From NCBI GenBank assembly GCA_043804695.1, contig JAZDIV010000141.1:1-32571 (forward strand): a stretch of 32,571 nucleotides of DNA, in the 5' to 3' direction. Position numbers and translations under genes: made by a program. The stretch comes from PVC group bacterium. Lineage in GTDB: Bacteria; Auribacterota; Erginobacteria; Erginobacterales; Erginobacteraceae. The first letter of the stretch is position 1; each line of letters starts with the position of its first letter. The notes below the pieces were generated by a model. That model saw only the letters and a list, made by a program, of their open reading frames with translations, searched no databases and was not told the origin of the DNA. Shown piece after piece: positions 2,527-26,738 of the stretch.

Positions 2527-3230
2527 ATGAGGGAAAGATACAACAGCTCCTCCGGCTCCAGGGCCTGGATATCGAGATCAGGGAACTGCTGGCAAGACAG
2601 ACGGCCATCAGGAATGAGATGAACGCGCTGTCGGAAGAAGTGAAGAACGACGAACGGGTCATCAAAGAGGAGAAGGAGCGTTTCCAGTCCGGCCGGGTCC
2701 GGAGCAAGGAGCTGGAGCTGCAGATCGAGGACAAAAAGAACCATATCGCCAGGTACCAGGAACAGATCTTCAAGGTGAAGACCAACAAGGAATACACCGC
2801 GCTTCTGCACGAGATAGAAAAAATCAAGGCCGACATCAGCGCGCTCGAGGACCGGATGCTGGAGTTGATGGAGGAAGTCGAGGACGAACAGGCGAAGCTG
2901 GGAGAAGCCCAGTCCGGCCTCGATCTCGCCCGGAAACGGTTTGGGGAGAGAGAGCGGACGGCCCGGGAGGATCTGCAGGCGATCGACCGGGAGCTGGAGA
3001 AACGGCGGGGGGAGCGGGAGGACCGGACGGCAGGAATCGACCCGGACCTCTACGAGAGGTATGAGATTATTTTTACCCGCAAGCCGGATCGGGCGCTGGT
3101 CGTAGTCCGCGACAATGCCTGCGGAGGATGCAACATGGAGCTGACCGCCCAGATGCTGAACGACCTGGCGCGGGCGGAGGGAATCTGCCAGTGCGAAAAC
3201 TGCGGCCGCTTCATCTACCTGGACGAATAG
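2527..3230 (+). CDS. Coiled-coil protein with C-terminal C4 zinc ribbon (HP0958/CT398-like); 5' end appears frameshifted
   Basis: CGGC...CENCGRFIY zinc ribbon and KTNKEYTALLHEIE motif. The family-like N-terminus KIQQLLRLQGLDIEI lies in frame upstream of the called ATG 2619, while the ATG at 2527 is out of frame. Confidence 0.85.
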
Positions 3231-3613: not shown

Positions 3614-4009
3614 GGCAGGGGACGGGTTGATGGTCGCCTCCCCGCGGCTTGCCGCGGGGGGGAGGAAAGTCCGAACTCCAGAGGGCAGGGCGCCCCGATA
3701 ACATCGGGGGACCGGGGGGAGCGATCCCTCCGGGACGGAAAGTGCCACAGAAAACAGACCGCCGATGGCCCCGGTGAATAGGGGCACAGGCAACGGTGAA
3801 AAGGTGCGGTAAGAGCGCACCGGGCCGAGAGTAATCGAGGCCGCATGACAAACCCCGCCCGGAGCAAGGCCGAATAGGGGCCGAGGTGTCGCCCGCACCG
3901 ATCGAGGCCCGGGTAGGCCGCATTGAGCCCGAGGGCAACCGAGGGCCCAGACAGATGACCATCGCCCCGGAACCGGGGTACAGAATTCGGCTTATTCCCG
4001 TCCCCTGCC
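3614..4009 (+). ncRNA. rnpB: RNase P RNA, class A
   Basis: Conserved GGAGGAAAGTCC, GGAAAGTGCCACAGAAA, AACGGTGAAA..GTGCGGTAAGAGCGCAC, GGAGCAAGGCC and ACAGAA..CGGCTTA motifs. P1 helix GGCAGGGGACGGG/CCCGTCCCCTGCC followed by a T-run. Confidence 0.97.
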
Positions 4010-13725: not shown

Positions 13726-14160
13726 ATGAATAAAACGAAAATGATTATGTTTGCCGGCCTGGGGTCTCTGGTCTCGGTGTTGATCTGGAGCTTCATCGGG
13801 GGATGCCATACCGCCCCGGAGAAACCGAAGGAGACGAGCCGGGTGGAACCGGCTTCTCTTTCCGAAGAGATGCCGCCGGCGGTCGAGACCGAAGAGACCG
13901 TGATCGAAGAGATGGCCCCGGCCGGGGAAAGGGAAAAAGAGGCGGTGGTGGCGAAGGAGGAGGCTGCCGGGCCGAAGGGGCTCCCGGCTCCCCCGGCCCC
14001 CGAAGCGGCGCCGGCCGGCCGCGTTCACACGGTGGGGAAGGGGGACACGCTCTGGGCCATCAGCCGCGAATACGACGTCAGCGTTCAGAAGATCCAGGAG
14101 GCCAACTCGATCGATGACCCCGGCCGTCTCACGATCGGGCAGAAGATCCGGATACCGTAG
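13726..14160 (+). CDS. LysM-domain putative lipoprotein
   Basis: Hydrophobic N-terminus ending IGGC, acidic Pro/Ala linker, C-terminal LysM (HTVGKGDTLWAISREY...GQKIRIP), AAGGAGG RBS. Confidence 0.9.
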   Translation: MNKTKMIMFAGLGSLVSVLIWSFIGGCHTAPEKPKETSRVEPASLSEEMPPAVETEETVIEEMAPAGEREKEAVVAKEEAAGPKGLPAPPAPEAAPAGRVHTVGKGDTLWAISREYDVSVQKIQEANSIDDPGRLTIGQKIRIP

Positions 14161-14166
14161 CTGGAC

Positions 14167-14381
14167 CCTGTTCGAAAAAGTTTTCGAGCAGGAAATCCTA
14201 AATCCTAATATCGAAATCCTAAATAAATCCAAAATCCAAATGACCAAATATCCACATATCGCGACGCTGGGCAAAATTATTTTGAATTTATGATTTTGGT
14301 CATTTGATATTATTTAGGATTTCGTATTTTCCGCCAGAGGCGTATCAGCCTTTGGCTGTAGATTTTAGAATTTTAGAGCTT
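14167..14381. repeat. Hairpin plus inverted 7-bp arrays (AAATCCW) with a nested GC palindrome
   Basis: cctgttcgaaaa-ag-ttttcgagcagg, then aaatcct aaatcct aatatcg aaatcct...aatgacc aaat. The right arm tttggtcatttgatattatttaggatttcg is its inverse. Confidence 0.85.
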
Positions 14382-14499
14382 AAGATTTTTTCGAGTAAGC
14401 TCTATCTGTCTCCCGCCGCCGGAGAAAATGGTCGAAAGAGCAGGGGAGGCATAGATGACAGGTCGGGCGTGAGCATCTCCGCCCCGAGTATTGATTGTT

Positions 14500-15660
14500 A
14501 TGCAGGTCAGCCGACTGAGGATGATTCTGATTTTCCTGATCGCCGCTTTTCTCGGCGTGGGGCTGCTGATGATTTACAGCAGCAGCGCCGTTTACGCCGC
14601 CGACAGGTACGGCGACAGCTACCTGCTCCTGAAGCGCCAGCTGCTCTGGCTGGGGGCGGGGGCGGTTGTCTTTGCCATTGCCGGGAGAATCGATTATCAC
14701 TGGTTTCAGAAAAAAAGCCGCTATCTCCTCCTGCTCGGGGTGCTTCTGCTGGCGGCAGTCTTCGTGCCCGGGCTGGGGCGGAGCGTCGGCGGCGCGCGCC
14801 GGTGGCTGAACCTGGGAGTGATGGGGTTTCAGCCCTCGGAGCTGGTGAAGTACCTGGCGGTGATCTACCTGGCCGACCTGCTCTCCCGCCGCCAGAATTC
14901 GCTCTCCAGCTTCACCGGCGGCTTTCTTCCTCCGCTGGCGGTGATCGGCGCCCTCTGCGGCCTGGTTGTCATCCAGCCGGACCTGGGGTCTGCCCTCAGC
15001 ATCGGGGTGATCGGCCTGCTCATGCTCTATCTCGGCGGCGCGCGCCTTGTCCATCTGGGCGCGCTCTGTCTCTCCGCGATCCCGGTTCTGGCGGTCATGA
15101 TCGTGAAGGTCGGATACCGAAGGCGTCGGATCATGGCGTTCATCGATCCCTGGGCCGACCCCCGGGGGACGGGATTTCAGATCATCCAGTCGCTGATCGC
15201 GCTGGGCTCCGGCGGCCCGACCGGTCTGGGATTGGGAGAGAGCCGTCAGAAGCTGTTCTACCTGCCTGCCGCCACCACCGACTTCATCTTTTCCATCCTG
15301 GGAGAAGAGCTCGGATTTTTGGGGACCGGCCTGGTGATCATCCTGGTGGTAGGCCTGCTGATCGTCGGTTTCGCCATCGCCCGGCGGGCGGATGATCTTT
15401 TCGGAAGCCTCCTTGCCGAGGGGATCACCGCGATGCTGGTCTTGCAGGCCATGGTCAACATGGGTGTGTCGTCCGGCATCCTGCCGACCAAAGGGCTCCC
15501 GCTGCCGTTTGTCAGCTACGGCGGTTCGAACCTCATCGTCAGCTTCCTGGCGGTGGGGATCCTGGCCAATATCGCCGCTCACCAGGACAGTGAATGCCGT
15601 TATCGCCGGGGAGGCGCGCCTCTCTATATCTTCAGTAAACCCAGAAAGGAGAAAAAGTGA
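14500..15660 (+). CDS. ftsW: SEDS peptidoglycan polymerase FtsW
   Basis: GLLMIYSSS, GARRW, FQPSE..K, QPDLG, TDFIFSILGEELG and LPTKGLPLPFVSYGGS motifs. Confidence 0.97.
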   Translation: MQVSRLRMILIFLIAAFLGVGLLMIYSSSAVYAADRYGDSYLLLKRQLLWLGAGAVVFAIAGRIDYHWFQKKSRYLLLLGVLLLAAVFVPGLGRSVGGARRWLNLGVMGFQPSELVKYLAVIYLADLLSRRQNSLSSFTGGFLPPLAVIGALCGLVVIQPDLGSALSIGVIGLLMLYLGGARLVHLGALCLSAIPVLAVMIVKVGYRRRRIMAFIDPWADPRGTGFQIIQSLIALGSGGPTGLGLGESRQKLFYLPAATTDFIFSILGEELGFLGTGLVIILVVGLLIVGFAIARRADDLFGSLLAEGITAMLVLQAMVNMGVSSGILPTKGLPLPFVSYGGSNLIVSFLAVGILANIAAHQDSECRYRRGGAPLYIFSKPRKEKK

Positions 15661-15836
15661 TGAAAGAAGATCTCTGTCCGGATTTTGACACCTGCTTCAT
15701 CAGCAGCATGCTGAAAGCCATCGAGGTTCCCCATGTCCTGCAGTACTGCATGAAGCACTACGGGAACTGTCGTTATCACTCTCGTCCGGCCCGGGAAGCC
15801 GTTGCCGGCCAACGGGCGAAAGAGGCGGATGCGTGA
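15660..15836 (+). CDS. Uncalled 58-aa four-cysteine small protein
   Basis: AAGGAG RBS at 15646-15651. The ATG overlaps the ftsW stop and the TGA overlaps the murG GTG. Cys pattern C-x5-C-x17-C-x6-C. Confidence 0.75.
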   Translation: MKEDLCPDFDTCFISSMLKAIEVPHVLQYCMKHYGNCRYHSRPAREAVAGQRAKEADA

Positions 15837-16942
15837 AGATCGCCTTTGCGGGCGGTGGCACCGGAGGCCATCTCGCTCCCGCGATCGCGGTCCTGGAGGA
15901 GCTGCGGTTCCGGGGCGATGATTCCCCGGCGCTTTTTCTGACCGCCGGGAAAACGGCTGAAAATCTGGGAAAGATGCTGCCCGCCGTCCGGAGCGTTCTT
16001 CTCCCGGCGGCCCCCCTCGCCGGGCGGCGGTGGTGGACGATCCCCCGGGCGCTGATGCGGAACCGGCGGGGATATAGGCTTAGCCGGGCTGAGCTGACCG
16101 CGGCCTCCCCCGATCTGGTGGTCGGCCTGGGCGGATACGTGTCGGCGCCCCCCGTTCTGGCCGCCCGCCGGCTGGGGATCCCGGTGGTGCTGCACGAACA
16201 GAACCTGGTGATGGGCCGTGCTAACCGGTTCCTGGCGCGGTATGCCGACCGGGTCGTCGGCAGCTACCCTCTCCGGTTATCCGGAGGGGCTCCCCGCGTC
16301 CTGTCGGGGATCGGGTTCCCGATCCGGCAGGCGGCCCGGCTGGCGGCTCCGGAAGGCACCGGCGCCGGGTGGGGGCTGGAGCCCGGCCGGTTCACCGTTC
16401 TCGTTCTCGGGGGGAGCCGGGGCGCGCGCCCTCTTAACCGGCTGCTGGAGGAAGCGCTCCGGGGCCGGGCGATCCCCGGTGACGCGCAGTTTATTCATTG
16501 TACCGGCCCCGACGACCGGGAGAGGATGGCCGGGGCTTACCGGGCGGCCGGCCTTCCCGCCGCCGTCTTCGCCTCCCTGGCCGAGATCGGGCAGGCGTAC
16601 AGCCTGGCCCGCCTCGTGATCGGGAGGGCCGGGGGGGCCACCCTGGGCGAGATCGCTTACTGGGGGCTCCCCGCGATCCTGGTCCCTTATCCATTGGCCG
16701 CCGACGATCACCAGCTGGCCAACGCCCGGTATTTTCAGGAGGCCGGCGCCGCGCTGGTTTACGAGCAGGCGGACCTGACGGCGCCGATCCTGAACGCGGA
16801 GATCCGGCGGTTGAGAAAGGAGGGGGAGCTGCTGAAGAAGATGTCGGCCGCCGCCCGGGGGCTCTATCTCCCCGGGGCGGCCGGGAGGATGGTCGACATT
16901 TTCCGGGAAGTGCTCGAAAACAAACATGAAGGCCTCGGATAA
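15833..16942 (+). CDS. murG: Lipid II GlcNAc transferase
   Basis: GGGTGGH, GLGGYVS, HEQN, GGSRGA, RAGGAT..E and HQ..NA motifs. Confidence 0.96.
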   Translation: MKIAFAGGGTGGHLAPAIAVLEELRFRGDDSPALFLTAGKTAENLGKMLPAVRSVLLPAAPLAGRRWWTIPRALMRNRRGYRLSRAELTAASPDLVVGLGGYVSAPPVLAARRLGIPVVLHEQNLVMGRANRFLARYADRVVGSYPLRLSGGAPRVLSGIGFPIRQAARLAAPEGTGAGWGLEPGRFTVLVLGGSRGARPLNRLLEEALRGRAIPGDAQFIHCTGPDDRERMAGAYRAAGLPAAVFASLAEIGQAYSLARLVIGRAGGATLGEIAYWGLPAILVPYPLAADDHQLANARYFQEAGAALVYEQADLTAPILNAEIRRLRKEGELLKKMSAAARGLYLPGAAGRMVDIFREVLENKHEGLG

Positions 16943-18492: not shown

Positions 18493-19452
18493 ATGATGGT
18501 AGGTCCGAAAAAATACGGCACGGTCGGTGTTCTCCTGGGCGGGCCATCCGCGGAGAGGGCGATCTCGCTCAAGTCGGGGAAGGCAGTGGCCGCCGCGCTC
18601 CGGGGAGCGGGTTTAACCGTCATCGAGATCGGTGAAGATGAAGATATCGTCGCCGGGCTCGCGGCCCGCCCTCCCGATGTCGCCTTCATCGCCCTTCACG
18701 GCCGTTTCGGAGAAGACGGCCAGATCCAAAAGCTTCTGGAAGAACGGAACATCCCCTATACCGGGTCGGGGATCGAAGCCAGCCGCCTGGCGATGGACAA
18801 GGTCGCCTCCCGCGCCCGCTTTGCCGCGGCCGGGCTGGCCGCCCCGACCTTTCGAGCATATGGTCCCGGGGATGGCCCGTCCGCCGCGCCGTTCCCCTTC
18901 CCGGTGGTGGTCAAGCCGGCCCGGGAGGGCTCCAGCATCGGGCTGAGCCTGGCCAAGACGGCCCGGCAGTTCGTGAAGGCCGTCGCGTTCGCCCGGCGCT
19001 ATGACGAGGTCATCCTGGTGGAAAGATATATTCCGGGGAGAGAGATGACCGTCGGCATCCTTGATGACGAGCCCCTGCCGGTGGTGGAGATTATCCCGCA
19101 AAATCCCTTCTTTGACTACGATGCGAAGTATGTCAAGGGAAGATCACAGTTCGTGGTCCCCGCGGTCCTTCCGGCTCCCGTCTGCCGGGACATTCAGCGG
19201 GTCGGCCTGACGGCCCATCGGGCTCTGGGGTGTTATGCCTGTTCCCGGGCCGATGTCATACTCGGCCGGGATGGGACACCGTATATTTTAGAAATCAATT
19301 CCATACCGGGATTCACCGCCACCAGCCTTCTGCCCCAGGCCGCGGCCTCGGCCGGGATGGACTTCGCGGCGCTTTGCCGCCGTCTCCTGGACCTGGCCCT
19401 GACCCGGAAGAACTATCGGAGATCGGGATCAACAAAAGGAGGAGTTTCATGA
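18493..19452 (+). CDS. ddl: D-alanine--D-alanine ligase
   Basis: GG.SAER.ISL.SG, LHG.FGEDG, VVKP.REGSS.G, YDAKY (Tyr, D-Ala-D-Ala type) and LEINSIPG motifs. Confidence 0.97.
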   Translation: MMVGPKKYGTVGVLLGGPSAERAISLKSGKAVAAALRGAGLTVIEIGEDEDIVAGLAARPPDVAFIALHGRFGEDGQIQKLLEERNIPYTGSGIEASRLAMDKVASRARFAAAGLAAPTFRAYGPGDGPSAAPFPFPVVVKPAREGSSIGLSLAKTARQFVKAVAFARRYDEVILVERYIPGREMTVGILDDEPLPVVEIIPQNPFFDYDAKYVKGRSQFVVPAVLPAPVCRDIQRVGLTAHRALGCYACSRADVILGRDGTPYILEINSIPGFTATSLLPQAAASAGMDFAALCRRLLDLALTRKNYRRSGSTKGGVS

Positions 19453-20285
19453 AATGGCTTTCATTGAGCAGCAAGCTCAGCCGCCCCCGCTCGAATGTGA
19501 AGATGAACGCGGCGGTCAAGCGGCGGAAAAAGAAAAACTCCGCTCCCGCCGGTTCCCGGCCCGGCGGGGGGCGGAGGGCGGGGAGTGTCATCCTGTTCAT
19601 CCTCTTTCTCGCCGCCCTGGGCGGGGGAGGGTGGTGGCTGATGCGGAGCTCGAAAATGTTTATCGTCAGGGAGATCCGGATCCGCAACAACCATGCCTAT
19701 ACCGAGCAAGAGATAATGGAGATGACCGGTCTGGAGACGGGGGGAAACATTTTTTCCCTGGATCCCGCCGCCGCCCGGGACAACCTCCTTCATAATAGTG
19801 ATTTCCGCGACGCCCGCGTGGAACGCATTTTCCCGGACCTGGTCCAGGTCGATGTCGTGGAGCGCGAGCCCCGCGCCCGGGTGCATTTCGGGCAGCTCTA
19901 TACGATCGACGACAGGGGGGTTGTTCTCGGCCCCCGCAAATCGGCTCCGGAGGCCCGGCTCCCGATCATCCGCGGGCTGAAGGTGGTCAATAACAGCCGG
20001 GATCTGTCCCCGCCCGACAAGAAGGACGCCTGTCTGCGCCTCCTGCGAGAACTGGAGGAGCAGGGCATCGGGTCTTTGGTCAGGATCGATGAAATCAGGA
20101 TCTTCTCCTCTGACCTGATCGAGATGAAAACGGAAGGGGAGATGGAGATCACCCTCGGCCAGGAGGATTACGGCGAGCAGCTGATGCGTCTGAAGACGGT
20201 GCTCAACAAGCTGGGATCGGATCTGGACCGGGCCCGGGAGGTGGATCTCCGATACTCCCGGATCCCGGTGGTCTTCGATGATTGA
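19449..20285 (+). CDS. ftsQ: Cell division protein FtsQ/DivIB
   Basis: AAGGAGG RBS, ATG overlapping the ddl stop, basic N-tail, one TM helix, POTRA domain (V.R.FPD...V.ER.P) and C-terminal VDLRY. Confidence 0.92.
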   Translation: MKWLSLSSKLSRPRSNVKMNAAVKRRKKKNSAPAGSRPGGGRRAGSVILFILFLAALGGGGWWLMRSSKMFIVREIRIRNNHAYTEQEIMEMTGLETGGNIFSLDPAAARDNLLHNSDFRDARVERIFPDLVQVDVVEREPRARVHFGQLYTIDDRGVVLGPRKSAPEARLPIIRGLKVVNNSRDLSPPDKKDACLRLLRELEEQGIGSLVRIDEIRIFSSDLIEMKTEGEMEITLGQEDYGEQLMRLKTVLNKLGSDLDRAREVDLRYSRIPVVFDD

Positions 20286-21768: not shown

Positions 21769-22899
21769 ATGAGCAAGGGAAAAACTGAAAAGAAAATTTC
21801 CCTCTGGGGGGTCGGCCACTGGGGCGTGCGGGTGGCCGGGTCGATGCCGGATGAGTATCGTCGCCGGCTGAAAATCGTGGCGGTCGATTCGGATGTCCAG
21901 TCCCTGATCTGTTCGCCGGTCGCTGACAAGCTAACCCTCGGATGGGAGGAAGCCGCCGGGCGGTCCGCCGGCGGTGATGGCGGCAAGGGCGAAGAAGCAT
22001 TCCGGGAGAGTGCGTCGGCCATCAAGGAGAAACTGGCTGATTGCCGGGTGGCCCTGATCGTCGGCGGACTGGGAGGGGGAACGGGGAGCAGCCTGATCCC
22101 GGCGCTCTGCGGCACCGCGCGCGGTTTGAAGATTCTGACCCTGGCCCTGGTGACGCGCCCGTTTGCCTTTGAGGGGAAAAAGAAGAACCTGCTCTTCCAG
22201 CGGGCGCGGGAGGGGATTGAAAAAAGCGGGGCGGGCCTGGCCTGTTTTTCCCTGGATCGCCTGGTCGGCAAGGCTGAAGACGATACCCCTCACGACGAGG
22301 TTTTCCAACGCTGCGACCGGATATTGCAGGAAGCGGTCGAGTGCGTGATCGACTGCCTGTCGCCATCCCCCGGGTCGGGATGCGACGGCGCCGCGCTGGA
22401 AAATATTTTGACCGCGCCCGGAGAAACCGTGATGGGCGCGTATGAGACGGCGAAGCCGGAGAATCTGGTGGCGGCGGCGAAGGGCGCGTTCTCGGCGCTT
22501 TCTCTCCGACCCGCCGAACTGGGCCGGGCGCGGGGATTCTTGATTCAGATTGAGGCTGCCGGGCCGATTCCCTTCCGCCATGTCGAGCAGGCGGTCGGAG
22601 CGGTCTCCGGGCGGCTGGCCGAGGACGCGGACCTCCTCTACGCCGTCACCCGAAAAAAGGAAGCGGGGGACAAGATCATCGTCCGCATCATCGCCTTCGG
22701 GATTCCGGAGAGGGGAGGGGAGAAGATCGCGTCCGCGATCCCGGTCACCATGACGACCGACGTCCGCCCGGCTGTTCAGACGGAGATCGACTTCAAGAAG
22801 CTGACCCGGGGGGTGTTTGCCGACACCGGCCCCACGCTTCTCGACGGGGAGGACCTGGACATCCCGACATTCGTCAGGAAAGGGGTCGAGCTGGAATAA
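21769..22899 (+). CDS. ftsZ: Divergent cell division protein FtsZ
   Basis: GLGGGTGS tubulin signature, VTRPF.FEG, C-terminal GEDLDIPTFVR, position after ftsA. The T1 and T7 loops are non-canonical. Confidence 0.9.
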   Translation: MSKGKTEKKISLWGVGHWGVRVAGSMPDEYRRRLKIVAVDSDVQSLICSPVADKLTLGWEEAAGRSAGGDGGKGEEAFRESASAIKEKLADCRVALIVGGLGGGTGSSLIPALCGTARGLKILTLALVTRPFAFEGKKKNLLFQRAREGIEKSGAGLACFSLDRLVGKAEDDTPHDEVFQRCDRILQEAVECVIDCLSPSPGSGCDGAALENILTAPGETVMGAYETAKPENLVAAAKGAFSALSLRPAELGRARGFLIQIEAAGPIPFRHVEQAVGAVSGRLAEDADLLYAVTRKKEAGDKIIVRIIAFGIPERGGEKIASAIPVTMTTDVRPAVQTEIDFKKLTRGVFADTGPTLLDGEDLDIPTFVRKGVELE

Positions 22900-24719: not shown

Positions 24720-24887
24720 AGGGGGCGAGGTAGGGAGAAAAAACTGAACGTCCAACGCCGAACGTTCAACGTCGAACATCGAACGTCACCGGGGCGCGGG
24801 ACTAATTTTCTTTCTCTGTGTTCTCCGTGGTTCAAAGAGGGGGCGAGGTAGAGGGAACTCTTGCGTATTTTGCGCTTTTTTGCGGCT
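24720..24887. repeat. Stacked 7-bp and 9-bp arrays bracketed by a 14-bp direct repeat
   Basis: AGGGGGCGAGGTAG at 24720 and 24838; (SAACGTC)x6 at 24746-24787; ctctgtgttctccgtggttc; ttgcgtattttgcgcttttttgcggct. Confidence 0.85.
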
Positions 24888-24893
24888 GCTGCC

Positions 24894-26738
24894 ATGATGG
24901 CTTTTATCGAGGCAATCAAAGAGCGGATCCTGATCGGCGACGGCGCCATGGGGACGCTGCTCCTCTCTAAGGGGATACGCCCCCAGCAGAGTTTCGAATC
25001 CCTCTGCCTGACCGAGCCGGCGGAGATAAAAGCGGTCCATCAGGAGTATATCGCCGCCGGGGCCGACCTGATTGAGACCAACACCTTCGGGGCCAACCGA
25101 TTCCGTCTGCGACCCGCGGGGTATGAACGGCAGGCGGCGCGGATCAATCAGGCGGCCGCGGCCCTGGCCCGGGACGCCGCCGGTGATGCTGTTTTCGTGG
25201 CTGGAGCGGTGGGAATGATCCCCACGCCGGACCGCGAGGCGGCCGGTCAGCGGCCTTCCGAGGGAGGGGAACTCTTCGAGGCCTATCGGGAGCAGATCGC
25301 GGCTCTCGCCGGAGGCGGCGTCGACCTCATCCTCCTGGAGACATTTGAAGAGTGGGAGAATCTCGATCTCGCCATCCGGGCCGCCCGGGAGGTTACCGAT
25401 CTCCCCGTCATCGCCCAGATGGCCTTATCCAACCGCGGCCTCTGCATCTTCGGCCGCATCGCGGAGATCTACTGCCGGCAGGCGCTCGCTGCCGGGGCGT
25501 CTGTCTTCGGGAGCAACTGCGGCGGGGGCTTTTCCTCGGTCCGGGAGGTCCTGAAAGGCGCGGCGGGCGTTGAAGGAGCTCTGCTGTCCGCTTTCCCCAA
25601 CGCCGGTATCCCGCAGATGATCCAGGGAAGGATCATTTATCCGGCTGCTCCGGAGTATTTCGCCGAAAAATGTCTGGAGCTTCTCCCGCTCGGCGTCCGT
25701 CTGATCGGCGGCTGCTGCGGGACCACCCCCCGGCACATCCGTGCTCTCCGCCAGGCGCTGGGCCGGCTCTCCGCCGAACCGGCGGCCCGCCGGGTTGCCC
25801 CGCCGCCCCGGATTGCCGTCGTTCCCCGATCGGAAAAGTCCGTGGAGGGAGGTTTTCTCTCCAGCCTCCGGCGGGACCGGCTCCCGATCATTGTCGAGAT
25901 CGACCCCCCCGCTTCCCCCGACCTGGAGAGGGTGGTCCAGGGCGCCCTGGCGGTCAAAAACGCCGGCGCCGACGCGGTCTCGATGGCGGACAATCCTCTG
26001 GCCGCCCTCAGGGTCAGCTCGATCTGCGCCGGGGGGGTTGTCCGGCGCCGAGCGGGCATCCAGGTCATCCCCCACCTGACCACCCGGGATCATAATATCC
26101 TCGGCCTCCAGTCCATCCTCCTGGGGGCCCAGGTGGAGGGACTGGAGGCCGTCCTGGCCGTTACCGGCGATCCGGCCGGGAAGAGCGACCAGCCCGGGAA
26201 CCGGGGGATATTCACCATCAACAGCATCCACCTGGTGGGCTTGATCGATCAGCTGAACCGGGGCCACATGCTCTCGGGCAAAACAATCGCCCATCCGACC
26301 AGCCTCTCGATCGGGGTCGCCTTTAACGCCAACGCCCCCAACCTGGAGGCGGAAGTGCTCAAGCTCCGCAGGAAGGTCGACAGCGGCGCCCGCTTTGCGC
26401 TGACCCAGCCCGTCTTTACCGCCGATCTGGTCCGGAAAGTCCTGGCGGCCTGTTCCGGCATCGACATCAAGATCTTCGTCGGGATCTATCCCCTCCTCTC
26501 GCTCCGGAACGCCGAGTTCATGGAGAACGAGGTCCCCGGGATCGCCATCCCCCGGGCGGTGAAAGAGAGGATCGCCGGCGCCGGGGACGGCCCCGCCCAG
26601 CGCCGGGCCGGCCTGGAGCTCGCCGCCGGTCTGATCGATGAGATCAGGCCGAAGATCGACGGGCTTTATATCATCAGCCCCCTCAATAAATGGGCCGTCC
26701 CTCTCGAGCTGGTTCGGCGCGTGCGCTCGCAGGAATAG
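24894..26738 (+). CDS. Bifunctional homocysteine S-methyltransferase / methylenetetrahydrofolate reductase (YitJ-like)
   Basis: DGAMGT, AGAD.IETNTFGAN, G.NC, PNAG.P and IGGCCGTTP in the HMT domain; VEIDPP, AD.P.A, H.T.RD.N, AVTGDP, TQPVF and NEVPGI in the MTHFR domain. Confidence 0.93.
   Translation: MMAFIEAIKERILIGDGAMGTLLLSKGIRPQQSFESLCLTEPAEIKAVHQEYIAAGADLIETNTFGANRFRLRPAGYERQAARINQAAAALARDAAGDAVFVAGAVGMIPTPDREAAGQRPSEGGELFEAYREQIAALAGGGVDLILLETFEEWENLDLAIRAAREVTDLPVIAQMALSNRGLCIFGRIAEIYCRQALAAGASVFGSNCGGGFSSVREVLKGAAGVEGALLSAFPNAGIPQMIQGRIIYPAAPEYFAEKCLELLPLGVRLIGGCCGTTPRHIRALRQALGRLSAEPAARRVAPPPRIAVVPRSEKSVEGGFLSSLRRDRLPIIVEIDPPASPDLERVVQGALAVKNAGADAVSMADNPLAALRVSSICAGGVVRRRAGIQVIPHLTTRDHNILGLQSILLGAQVEGLEAVLAVTGDPAGKSDQPGNRGIFTINSIHLVGLIDQLNRGHMLSGKTIAHPTSLSIGVAFNANAPNLEAEVLKLRRKVDSGARFALTQPVFTADLVRKVLAACSGIDIKIFVGIYPLLSLRNAEFMENEVPGIAIPRAVKERIAGAGDGPAQRRAGLELAAGLIDEIRPKIDGLYIISPLNKWAVPLELVRRVRSQE

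Follow-up and report, generated by a model that had tools for sequence, protein, structure and literature searches.

The genes of the bacterial dcw (division and cell wall) cluster follow a conserved order, mraW-ftsI-murE-murF-mraY-murD-ftsW-murG-murC-ddl-ftsQ-ftsA-ftsZ, in which the step from ftsW to murG is among the most conserved gene junctions of bacteria, and the products of both genes are essential for septal peptidoglycan synthesis. We describe here a small gene that lies at this junction and encodes a 58-residue protein with four invariant cysteines (the Cys4 protein). It is carried by a stretch of 32,571 nucleotides from a PVC group bacterium (GenBank assembly GCA_043804695.1, contig JAZDIV010000141.1, positions 1 to 32,571 of the forward strand), the whole of which is called the window below. 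Among the small proteins of the dcw cluster and the divisome, those with which the Cys4 protein is presumably best compared are SidA, MciZ, Blr, CrgA and Sbp; proteins of this type are mostly membrane peptides or FtsZ binders and have no site made of four cysteines. Twin-CxnC helical hairpins are known from the CHCH domain, with its Cx9C motifs, and the WhiB-like (Wbl) [4Fe-4S] proteins of Actinobacteria have the motif C-x(n)-C-x2-C-x5-C together with a C-terminal part that binds DNA or sigma factor. WhiB and WhiB2 are described as controlling cell division.

The small gene at the ftsW-murG junction

The small open reading frame (ORF) between ftsW and murG is almost certainly a genuine protein-coding gene. 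Its arrangement in the window, with ORF coordinates read from the sequence, is as follows.

14491..15660, plus strand: ftsW, 389 aa from a putative TTG start (PF01098, E 7.7e-111)
15646..15651, plus strand: AAGGAG, a Shine-Dalgarno (SD)-like motif within the 3' end of ftsW, with an 8-nt spacer to the ATG of the small gene
15660..15836, plus strand: the Cys4 small gene, 58 codons plus TGA
15821..15825, plus strand: AGAGG, an SD-like motif for murG that the small gene carries in its final codons, with 7 nt to the GTG of murG
15833..16942, plus strand: murG, 369 aa from a GTG start (PF03033 and PF04101)

The ftsW stop codon TGA (15658-15660) ends on the A of the small-gene ATG (15660-15662), and the stop codon of the small gene, TGA at 15834-15836, overlaps the murG start codon GTG (15833-15835) by 4 nt (GTGA, 15833-15836). 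The first-pass annotation, made from the window sequence alone, had reported a 58-aa ORF with AAGGAG 8 nt upstream, a start sharing a base with the ftsW stop and a stop overlapping the murG start, and had claimed coupling to both neighbors; the sequence bears out this layout exactly. It had also called the gene hidden, which is true of the ORF track that it used, but not elsewhere: those public records that name relatives of the gene label them "hypothetical protein", and the window's own small-protein sequence is present in the protein collection. Our ORF list gives the gene as 15657..15836 (59 aa) because a GTG lies in frame immediately 5' of the ATG; in all 13 orthologues the starts align at the ATG. 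The flanking products score 395 bits against TIGR02614 (FtsW; cut-off, 337.5) and 238 bits against TIGR01133 (MurG), the latter slightly below the cut-off of 250.25. The dcw cluster is complete in the window (rsmH, ftsI, murE, murF, mraY, murD, a LysM-domain gene, ftsW, the small gene, murG, murC, ddl, ftsQ, ftsA and ftsZ), as judged from Pfam naming of the window ORFs, and the small gene belongs to the cluster by its strand and by its ftsW and murG flanks in 13 loci. Rfam gave no match in or near the ftsW-murG interval of the window, and consensus scans detected no promoter-like or terminator-like site between the two genes.

When the 58-aa protein was searched in six frames against 41 related genomes, 12 matches were obtained at E ≤ 4e-5, that in its own genome included, all of them within one order; the remaining matches had E ≥ 0.08. 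With a profile of 12 sequences the gene was found in 12 of the 14 Erginobacterales genomes, and a phylum-wide profile search returned matches at E ≤ 0.01 in 14 of 79 genomes, namely the same 12 and two marginal ones (E 0.002 and 0.009), which were treated as noise on account of internal stop codons. An intact ORF of 55-59 aa lies between the ftsW and murG matches in all 12 loci, except that the contig of one locus (L006) stops before ftsW, so that the upstream flank is not on the contig. A metagenome contig (L034) carries a further member, 37% identical, in the same ftsW-small gene-murG arrangement. Only one significant match was obtained per carrier genome, with no second copy elsewhere in these genomes, and a single-protein scan of the genome contig collection gave no match. 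Homologues with conserved cysteines therefore do exist at the ftsW-murG junction of relatives, where the first-pass annotation had proposed to look for them.

Six residues, C6, P7, C12, Y29, C30 and C37, are invariant in 22 family sequences, and L18 and Y39 are almost invariant; the four invariant cysteines are thus residues 6, 12, 30 and 37. The motif singled out in the first-pass annotation, CP-x4-C...YC-x3-Y-x2-C, is precisely what is conserved, in the form CP-x4-C...YC-x3-[YF]-x2-C. Two or three synonymous codons are used at every invariant residue across 13 loci (for C12, TGC in 7 and TGT in 6), and base variability at codon positions 1, 2 and 3 is 0.28, 0.20 and 0.40 over 36 core codons. 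Only the small-gene frame, of the six, is stop-free in all 13 orthologous intervals, so the interrupted intervals that the first-pass annotation had named as grounds for rejecting the gene do not occur. The G+C content at the third codon position exceeds that at the second in 13 of 13 intervals, and that at the first exceeds the second in 12 of 13.

Selection was estimated from Nei-Gojobori counts of the proportions of nonsynonymous (pN) and synonymous (pS) differences in 66 pairs among 12 orthologues. For the conserved core (residues and alignment columns 1-44) mean pN was 0.372 and mean pS 0.699. The comparison of the window with a relative of the same genus gave a pN of 0.130, a pS of 0.656 and an omega of 0.09, and in closer orthologue pairs core omega was about 0.06-0.17; these ratios are rough because synonymous distances are saturated in many pairs. 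The variable tail (residues 45-58, the last ~14) is near neutral, with a mean pN of 0.565, a mean pS of 0.645 and an omega near 1. The core is under purifying selection, and the test of substitution rates and cysteine conservation suggested with the first-pass annotation thus came out in favor of the gene.

One could envisage that no functional protein is made at all, the interval being a spacer or translational coupler for murG, a chance frame, or part of ftsW or murG read out of frame. The final codons do hold the murG SD sequence, the 14-residue tail evolves at an omega near 1, and outgroup genomes couple ftsW directly to murG. The low omega of the core in closer pairs, the six invariant residues with synonymous turnover at each, and the single frame that is open in 13 of 13 loci are nevertheless what a coding gene would leave behind. 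A fragment of either neighbor is also hard to reconcile with the frame of the small gene, which differs from the ftsW and murG frames in the window, and with its distance of 49-312 nt from ftsW in three relatives. In addition, a form fused to FtsW, MurG or other proteins was found neither in a profile scan of 1.84 billion representatives nor in a search of longer proteins, the latter being weak evidence. The spacer or chance-frame reading is largely refuted, and we regard the lack of a functional product as very improbable.

The Cys4 small protein is an undescribed family of narrow range. Pfam (window protein and 22 members), NCBIfam (12 members) and PHROGs (22 members) gave no usable match; two single members matched zf-TRAF (E 0.018) and zf-CCCH_DUS3L (E 0.083) in Pfam at chance level. 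PDB sequences searched against the family profile and Foldseek of the model against the PDB each returned 0 matches at E ≤ 10, the best Z of VIA-align against 48,161 chains was 3.1, with generic helices throughout, and the best ESM Atlas score (0.85) fell inside that tool's own noise range. The scan of 1.84 billion representatives produced 15 matches at E ≤ 0.001, of which 12 are stand-alone proteins of 55-59 aa, and the family amounts to about 12 clusters at 50% identity. The other three matches are long proteins of 960, 288 and 1250 aa, hit in 12, 4 and 3 short stretches, respectively; the 288-aa protein, the only one of the three inspected, is a repeat protein with "LKSINIPRNVE"-like units and was taken as a chance resemblance. 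An origin by duplication of the FtsW tail ("ECRY", compared with "NCRY" in the small protein) was considered and dropped because the cysteine of the FtsW tail is not conserved in position across the order. A low-GC metagenome contig (L035, 2050-2247, plus strand) holds a 65-aa ORF with the pattern C-x9-C-x16-YC-x6-C that scores 31.4 bits against the family profile; its neighbors have no Pfam match, the ORF is a singleton in the protein collection, and from its sequence it may be a distant relative of the Cys4 family. Full-text literature searches returned no paper whose title or abstract deals with a cysteine-rich small gene between ftsW and murG.

Origin of the gene and its coupling to murG

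The carriers belong to Erginobacterales (Candidatus Auribacterota, PVC group) according to the NCBI taxonomy. Two of the 14 genomes of the order gave no match. In G012, murG is cut at the contig start and the ftsW-murG junction is not assembled. The other genome, G004, is from the same family and 94% complete; there the TAA of ftsW overlaps the ATG of murG (TAATG) and the small gene is absent. Outside the order, ftsW lies upstream of murG in 20 of 21 outgroup Auribacterota loci. The gap between them, as estimated from tblastn matches, is at most 69 nt in 16 of the 20, seven of which show a 4-nt overlap, and such junctions are too short to accommodate the small gene; a 17th locus (L053) has a negative gap for which the estimate is unreliable. 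One outgroup locus has a 111-nt gap with no ORF. Two loci of a single outgroup genus, L059 (about 1322-1423) and L064 (same position, reverse strand), have a gap of 188-189 nt that encodes a conserved 33-aa ORF (MKIKL...DRYCF) preceded by an SD sequence and unrelated to the Cys4 family.

The MurG tree comprised 34 rows, after removal of the outgroup row L052, whose sequence has an internal stop. All 13 carriers fall into one clade with G004 (support 100/99), and G004 is nested among the carriers as sister to L004 (96/83). The topology is therefore explained with the fewest changes by one gain and one later clean loss, and we conclude that a single insertion at the base of Erginobacterales placed the small gene between ftsW and murG. 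MurG identity to the window drops to 40-45% among carriers, and the position of the gene is still kept in 13 of 13 loci.

The downstream junction is uniform. In all 13 loci the stop codon of the small gene overlaps the murG start by 4 nt (ATGA, GTGA or TTGA), so that ribosomes ending the small gene can start directly on murG, and most orthologues have a GAGG- or GGAG-like string in the 14 nt that precede the murG start. All 13 orthologues have an ATG start with a purine-rich SD-like motif upstream, as seen by eye in the upstream sequences. The spacing from ftsW is looser: the genes overlap by 1 nt in five loci and by 4 and 8 nt in two, and are separated by 2 nt in one and by 49, 65 and 312 nt in three. 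The 312-nt gap (L004 1663-1974, genome G003) is an AT-rich spacer between ftsW and the small gene, in a locus that retains the 4-nt murG overlap; consensus scans of this spacer revealed no promoter or terminator, and the sole promoter-like match lay inside the small gene.

The position of the gene suggests that its product may be functionally tied to MurG or FtsW, a link that we consider possible though somewhat doubtful. The main rival explanation holds that a real Cys4 microprotein, with a job unrelated to the cell wall, landed at an insertion-tolerant junction of a constitutive operon, where it would stay put because clean removal without disturbing murG translation is rare. Such a gene could be lost as it was in G004, with no visible change at the junction, and the unrelated 33-aa ORF of L059 and L064 shows that other ORFs are found at the same place. 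A possible distant relative in a different context (L035) and the lack of any order-specific MurG feature among those compared would be expected as well. What this explanation accommodates less readily is that the position has been held in every carrier locus across such deep divergence, that no copy was found elsewhere in the carrier genomes, and that the murG overlap is invariant; on balance we judge it unlikely.

Predicted fold, candidate metal site and possible role

AlphaFold2 was run twice, with alignments of 12 and 22 sequences, and gave mean predicted local distance difference test scores (pLDDT) of 75.6 and 74.5. In both runs residues 1-40 had a pLDDT of 75-90 and formed the same two helices (about residues 13-21 and 24-32) and a short turn (34-36); the tail was covered by a low-confidence helix. 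The small protein is thus predicted to fold as a short helical hairpin, with C12 and C30 expected at its open end and C6 and C37 in the flanking loops. C12 would neighbor C30 because the topology of an antiparallel hairpin pairs the start of helix 1 with the end of helix 2. In all 22 sequences the maximum hydropathy over 19 residues stays under 1.5, short of membrane-helix level, and the protein is predicted to be soluble and cytoplasmic, with neither a signal peptide nor a membrane helix. The charge of the tail is highly variable, its isoelectric point (pI) ranging from 4.1 to 11.5 in the 22 sequences.

Judging from their invariance and from the predicted topology, the four cysteines probably make up a single metal site, an assignment in which we place moderate confidence. 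An iron-sulfur (Fe-S) cluster is somewhat favored over zinc because of the C-x5-C and C-x6-C spacings, the Cys-Pro pair, the aromatic flanks and the inferred anaerobic life of the phylum; Ca. Auribacterota are described as inferred anaerobic fermenters (Williams et al. 2022, PMC9324843). The predicted topology would also suit a thiol switch that binds no metal, in which reversible disulfides C6-C37 and C12-C30 staple the hairpin, much as in twin-CxnC helical hairpins, and the protein serves as a redox sensor or buffer: the predicted secondary structure would set C12 beside C30 and leave C6 and C37 in the flanking loops, as two disulfides would need. Stable structural disulfides are unusual in an anaerobic cytoplasm, and invariant Cys-Pro with aromatic flanks is more typical of metal sites. 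Given that the protein has no predicted signal peptide or membrane segment, that it is predicted to be cytoplasmic and that the phylum is inferred to be anaerobic, we consider the thiol switch improbable.

The best explanation of the whole chain of observations is an order-specific, selected Cys4 metal microprotein that is made with MurG and acts with MurG and/or FtsW; we put it forward tentatively, as a reading that falls only a little short of being probable. The four invariant cysteines would close the helical hairpin around one metal centre (Fe-S or Zn), the protein would be produced in step with MurG, and it would assist or regulate MurG and/or FtsW as a partner protein. The first-pass annotation had likewise suggested a Zn- or Fe-S-binding microprotein, possibly responsive to metal or redox state and co-expressed with lipid II synthesis and division; the gene and its cysteine pattern bear this reading out in part, and a metal, a redox role and a tie to lipid II would be its putative elements.

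Several observations weigh against this explanation. The gene is dispensable in at least one lineage because the close relative G004 deleted it cleanly, and, judged from this genome, FtsW and MurG can function without the small protein. The spacing between the ftsW stop and the small-gene start is variable: at one extreme the two genes overlap by 8 nt, at the other they lie 312 nt apart. The shared 4 nt at the murG start are weak evidence for a protein-protein link because the same overlap (gap -4) is found at 7 of 20 outgroup ftsW-murG junctions, and they may only preserve an ancestral ftsW-murG coupling. Comparison of carrier and outgroup MurG revealed no order-specific insertion and no more than three order-specific columns (A168, G253 and W277); as the MurG of G004 keeps two of the three, no feature co-evolving with the small gene was found in this protein. 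The weak relative L035 stands in an unrelated context that includes neither ftsW nor murG. As for the cofactor, no family, PDB-sequence or fold match supports metal binding or a specific cofactor, and the spacing arguments for Fe-S would rest on comparison with known motifs.

A more specific mechanism can be imagined, in which an Fe-S subunit sensitive to oxygen, redox state or iron binds to MurG, or at the place where FtsW and MurG meet, and controls the supply of lipid II to the septal synthase. We think it a long shot; if true, strict anaerobes would halt wall growth and division upon cluster damage, and the subunit would be the first metal-cofactor switch within the core ftsW-murG step of the dcw pathway. 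More generally, a Cys4 protein that is encoded at ftsW-murG and read into murG can be seen as a candidate for a new accessory factor, either in lipid II synthesis or for the septal synthase, in a barely studied phylum of the PVC group, and an Fe-S cluster, if present, would connect the synthesis of the wall with the redox or iron status. Even as a passenger with an unrelated job, the gene would still record a gain at an operon junction that was kept across the deep divergence of the order. The general importance is modest because the family is tiny, is confined to uncultured organisms and has been lost in one lineage.

Other genes of the window and comparison with described small proteins

Some other features of the window were noted. 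Between murD and ftsW, at 13726-14160 (plus strand), lies a gene whose 144-aa product has a LysM domain at its C-terminus (PF01476, E 2.9e-17); an additional gene in this core part of the dcw cluster is unusual. The G004 locus likewise has a LysM-like C-terminus immediately upstream of ftsW (L026 1-213). A terminator-like hairpin is located at 14333-14356, upstream of ftsW. Downstream, ddl (18493-19452) directly follows murC within the segment 18493-20285 (plus strand), and the cluster has no murB; the true ftsQ start is probably later than the listed one because the listed ORF (19230-20285, GTG start) overlaps ddl by about 220 nt. The ftsZ gene (21769-22899, plus strand) is divergent, scoring 136 bits against TIGR00065 (cut-off, 295.2), and Pfam detects only the Tubulin/FtsZ GTPase domain of its product (63 bits, residues 35-141), with no C-terminal domain at E ≤ 1e-5. 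A 625-aa chain encoded at 24861-26738 (plus strand) joins homocysteine S-methyltransferase (PF02574) and methylenetetrahydrofolate reductase (PF02219) domains. Upstream of the dcw cluster, on the plus strand, are a tRNA gene (2427-2498) and a bacterial RNase P RNA of class A (3618-4009, 229.8 bits). The same upstream region encodes a CT398-like coiled-coil protein (2619-3230, plus strand; PF24481 and PF02591), which has a true C4 zinc ribbon and is unrelated to the small protein.

The Cys4 protein resembles Cys4 zinc ribbons and knuckles in its small size, its four cysteines and the proline after the first of them. Unlike those of zinc ribbons, its cysteines are spaced C-x5-C and C-x6-C, none of the 22 sequences contains a CxxC, its predicted fold is helical rather than a beta-hairpin, and no zinc-ribbon family was matched at E ≤ 1 apart from the two chance-level single-member matches described above. 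The cysteine pattern C-x5-C-x17-C-x6-C excludes identity with a zinc ribbon.

With the Wbl proteins it shares small size, a helical structure (predicted in this case) and four cysteines. The order and spacing of the cysteines differ, however, the carriers belong to another phylum, and the tail, with its pI of 4.1-11.5, is not a basic DNA-binding tail. Wbl identity was rejected, as no Wbl match was obtained in Pfam with the 22 members and the C-x5-C-x17-C-x6-C pattern departs from the known Wbl pattern. The likeness to twin-CxnC hairpins lies in the helix-turn-helix with two cysteines on each side. In contrast to these, the spacings are x5 and x6 instead of x9, two of the cysteines are placed in loops outside the helices, the protein is bacterial and cytoplasmic by prediction, and there is no sequence or fold match; the twin-Cx9C pattern as we know it is excluded by the same cysteine spacing.

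In genomic setting the closest counterparts are SidA, MciZ, Blr, CrgA and Sbp. Like them, the Cys4 protein has fewer than 100 residues, is encoded with core genes of division and peptidoglycan synthesis, with which such proteins are encoded or on which they act, and is limited to one lineage. It has no sequence relation to them, its Pfam (22 members) and NCBIfam (12 members) matches being at chance level only, and, unlike proteins of the SidA type, it is by prediction a soluble protein and has four invariant cysteines as its defining feature.

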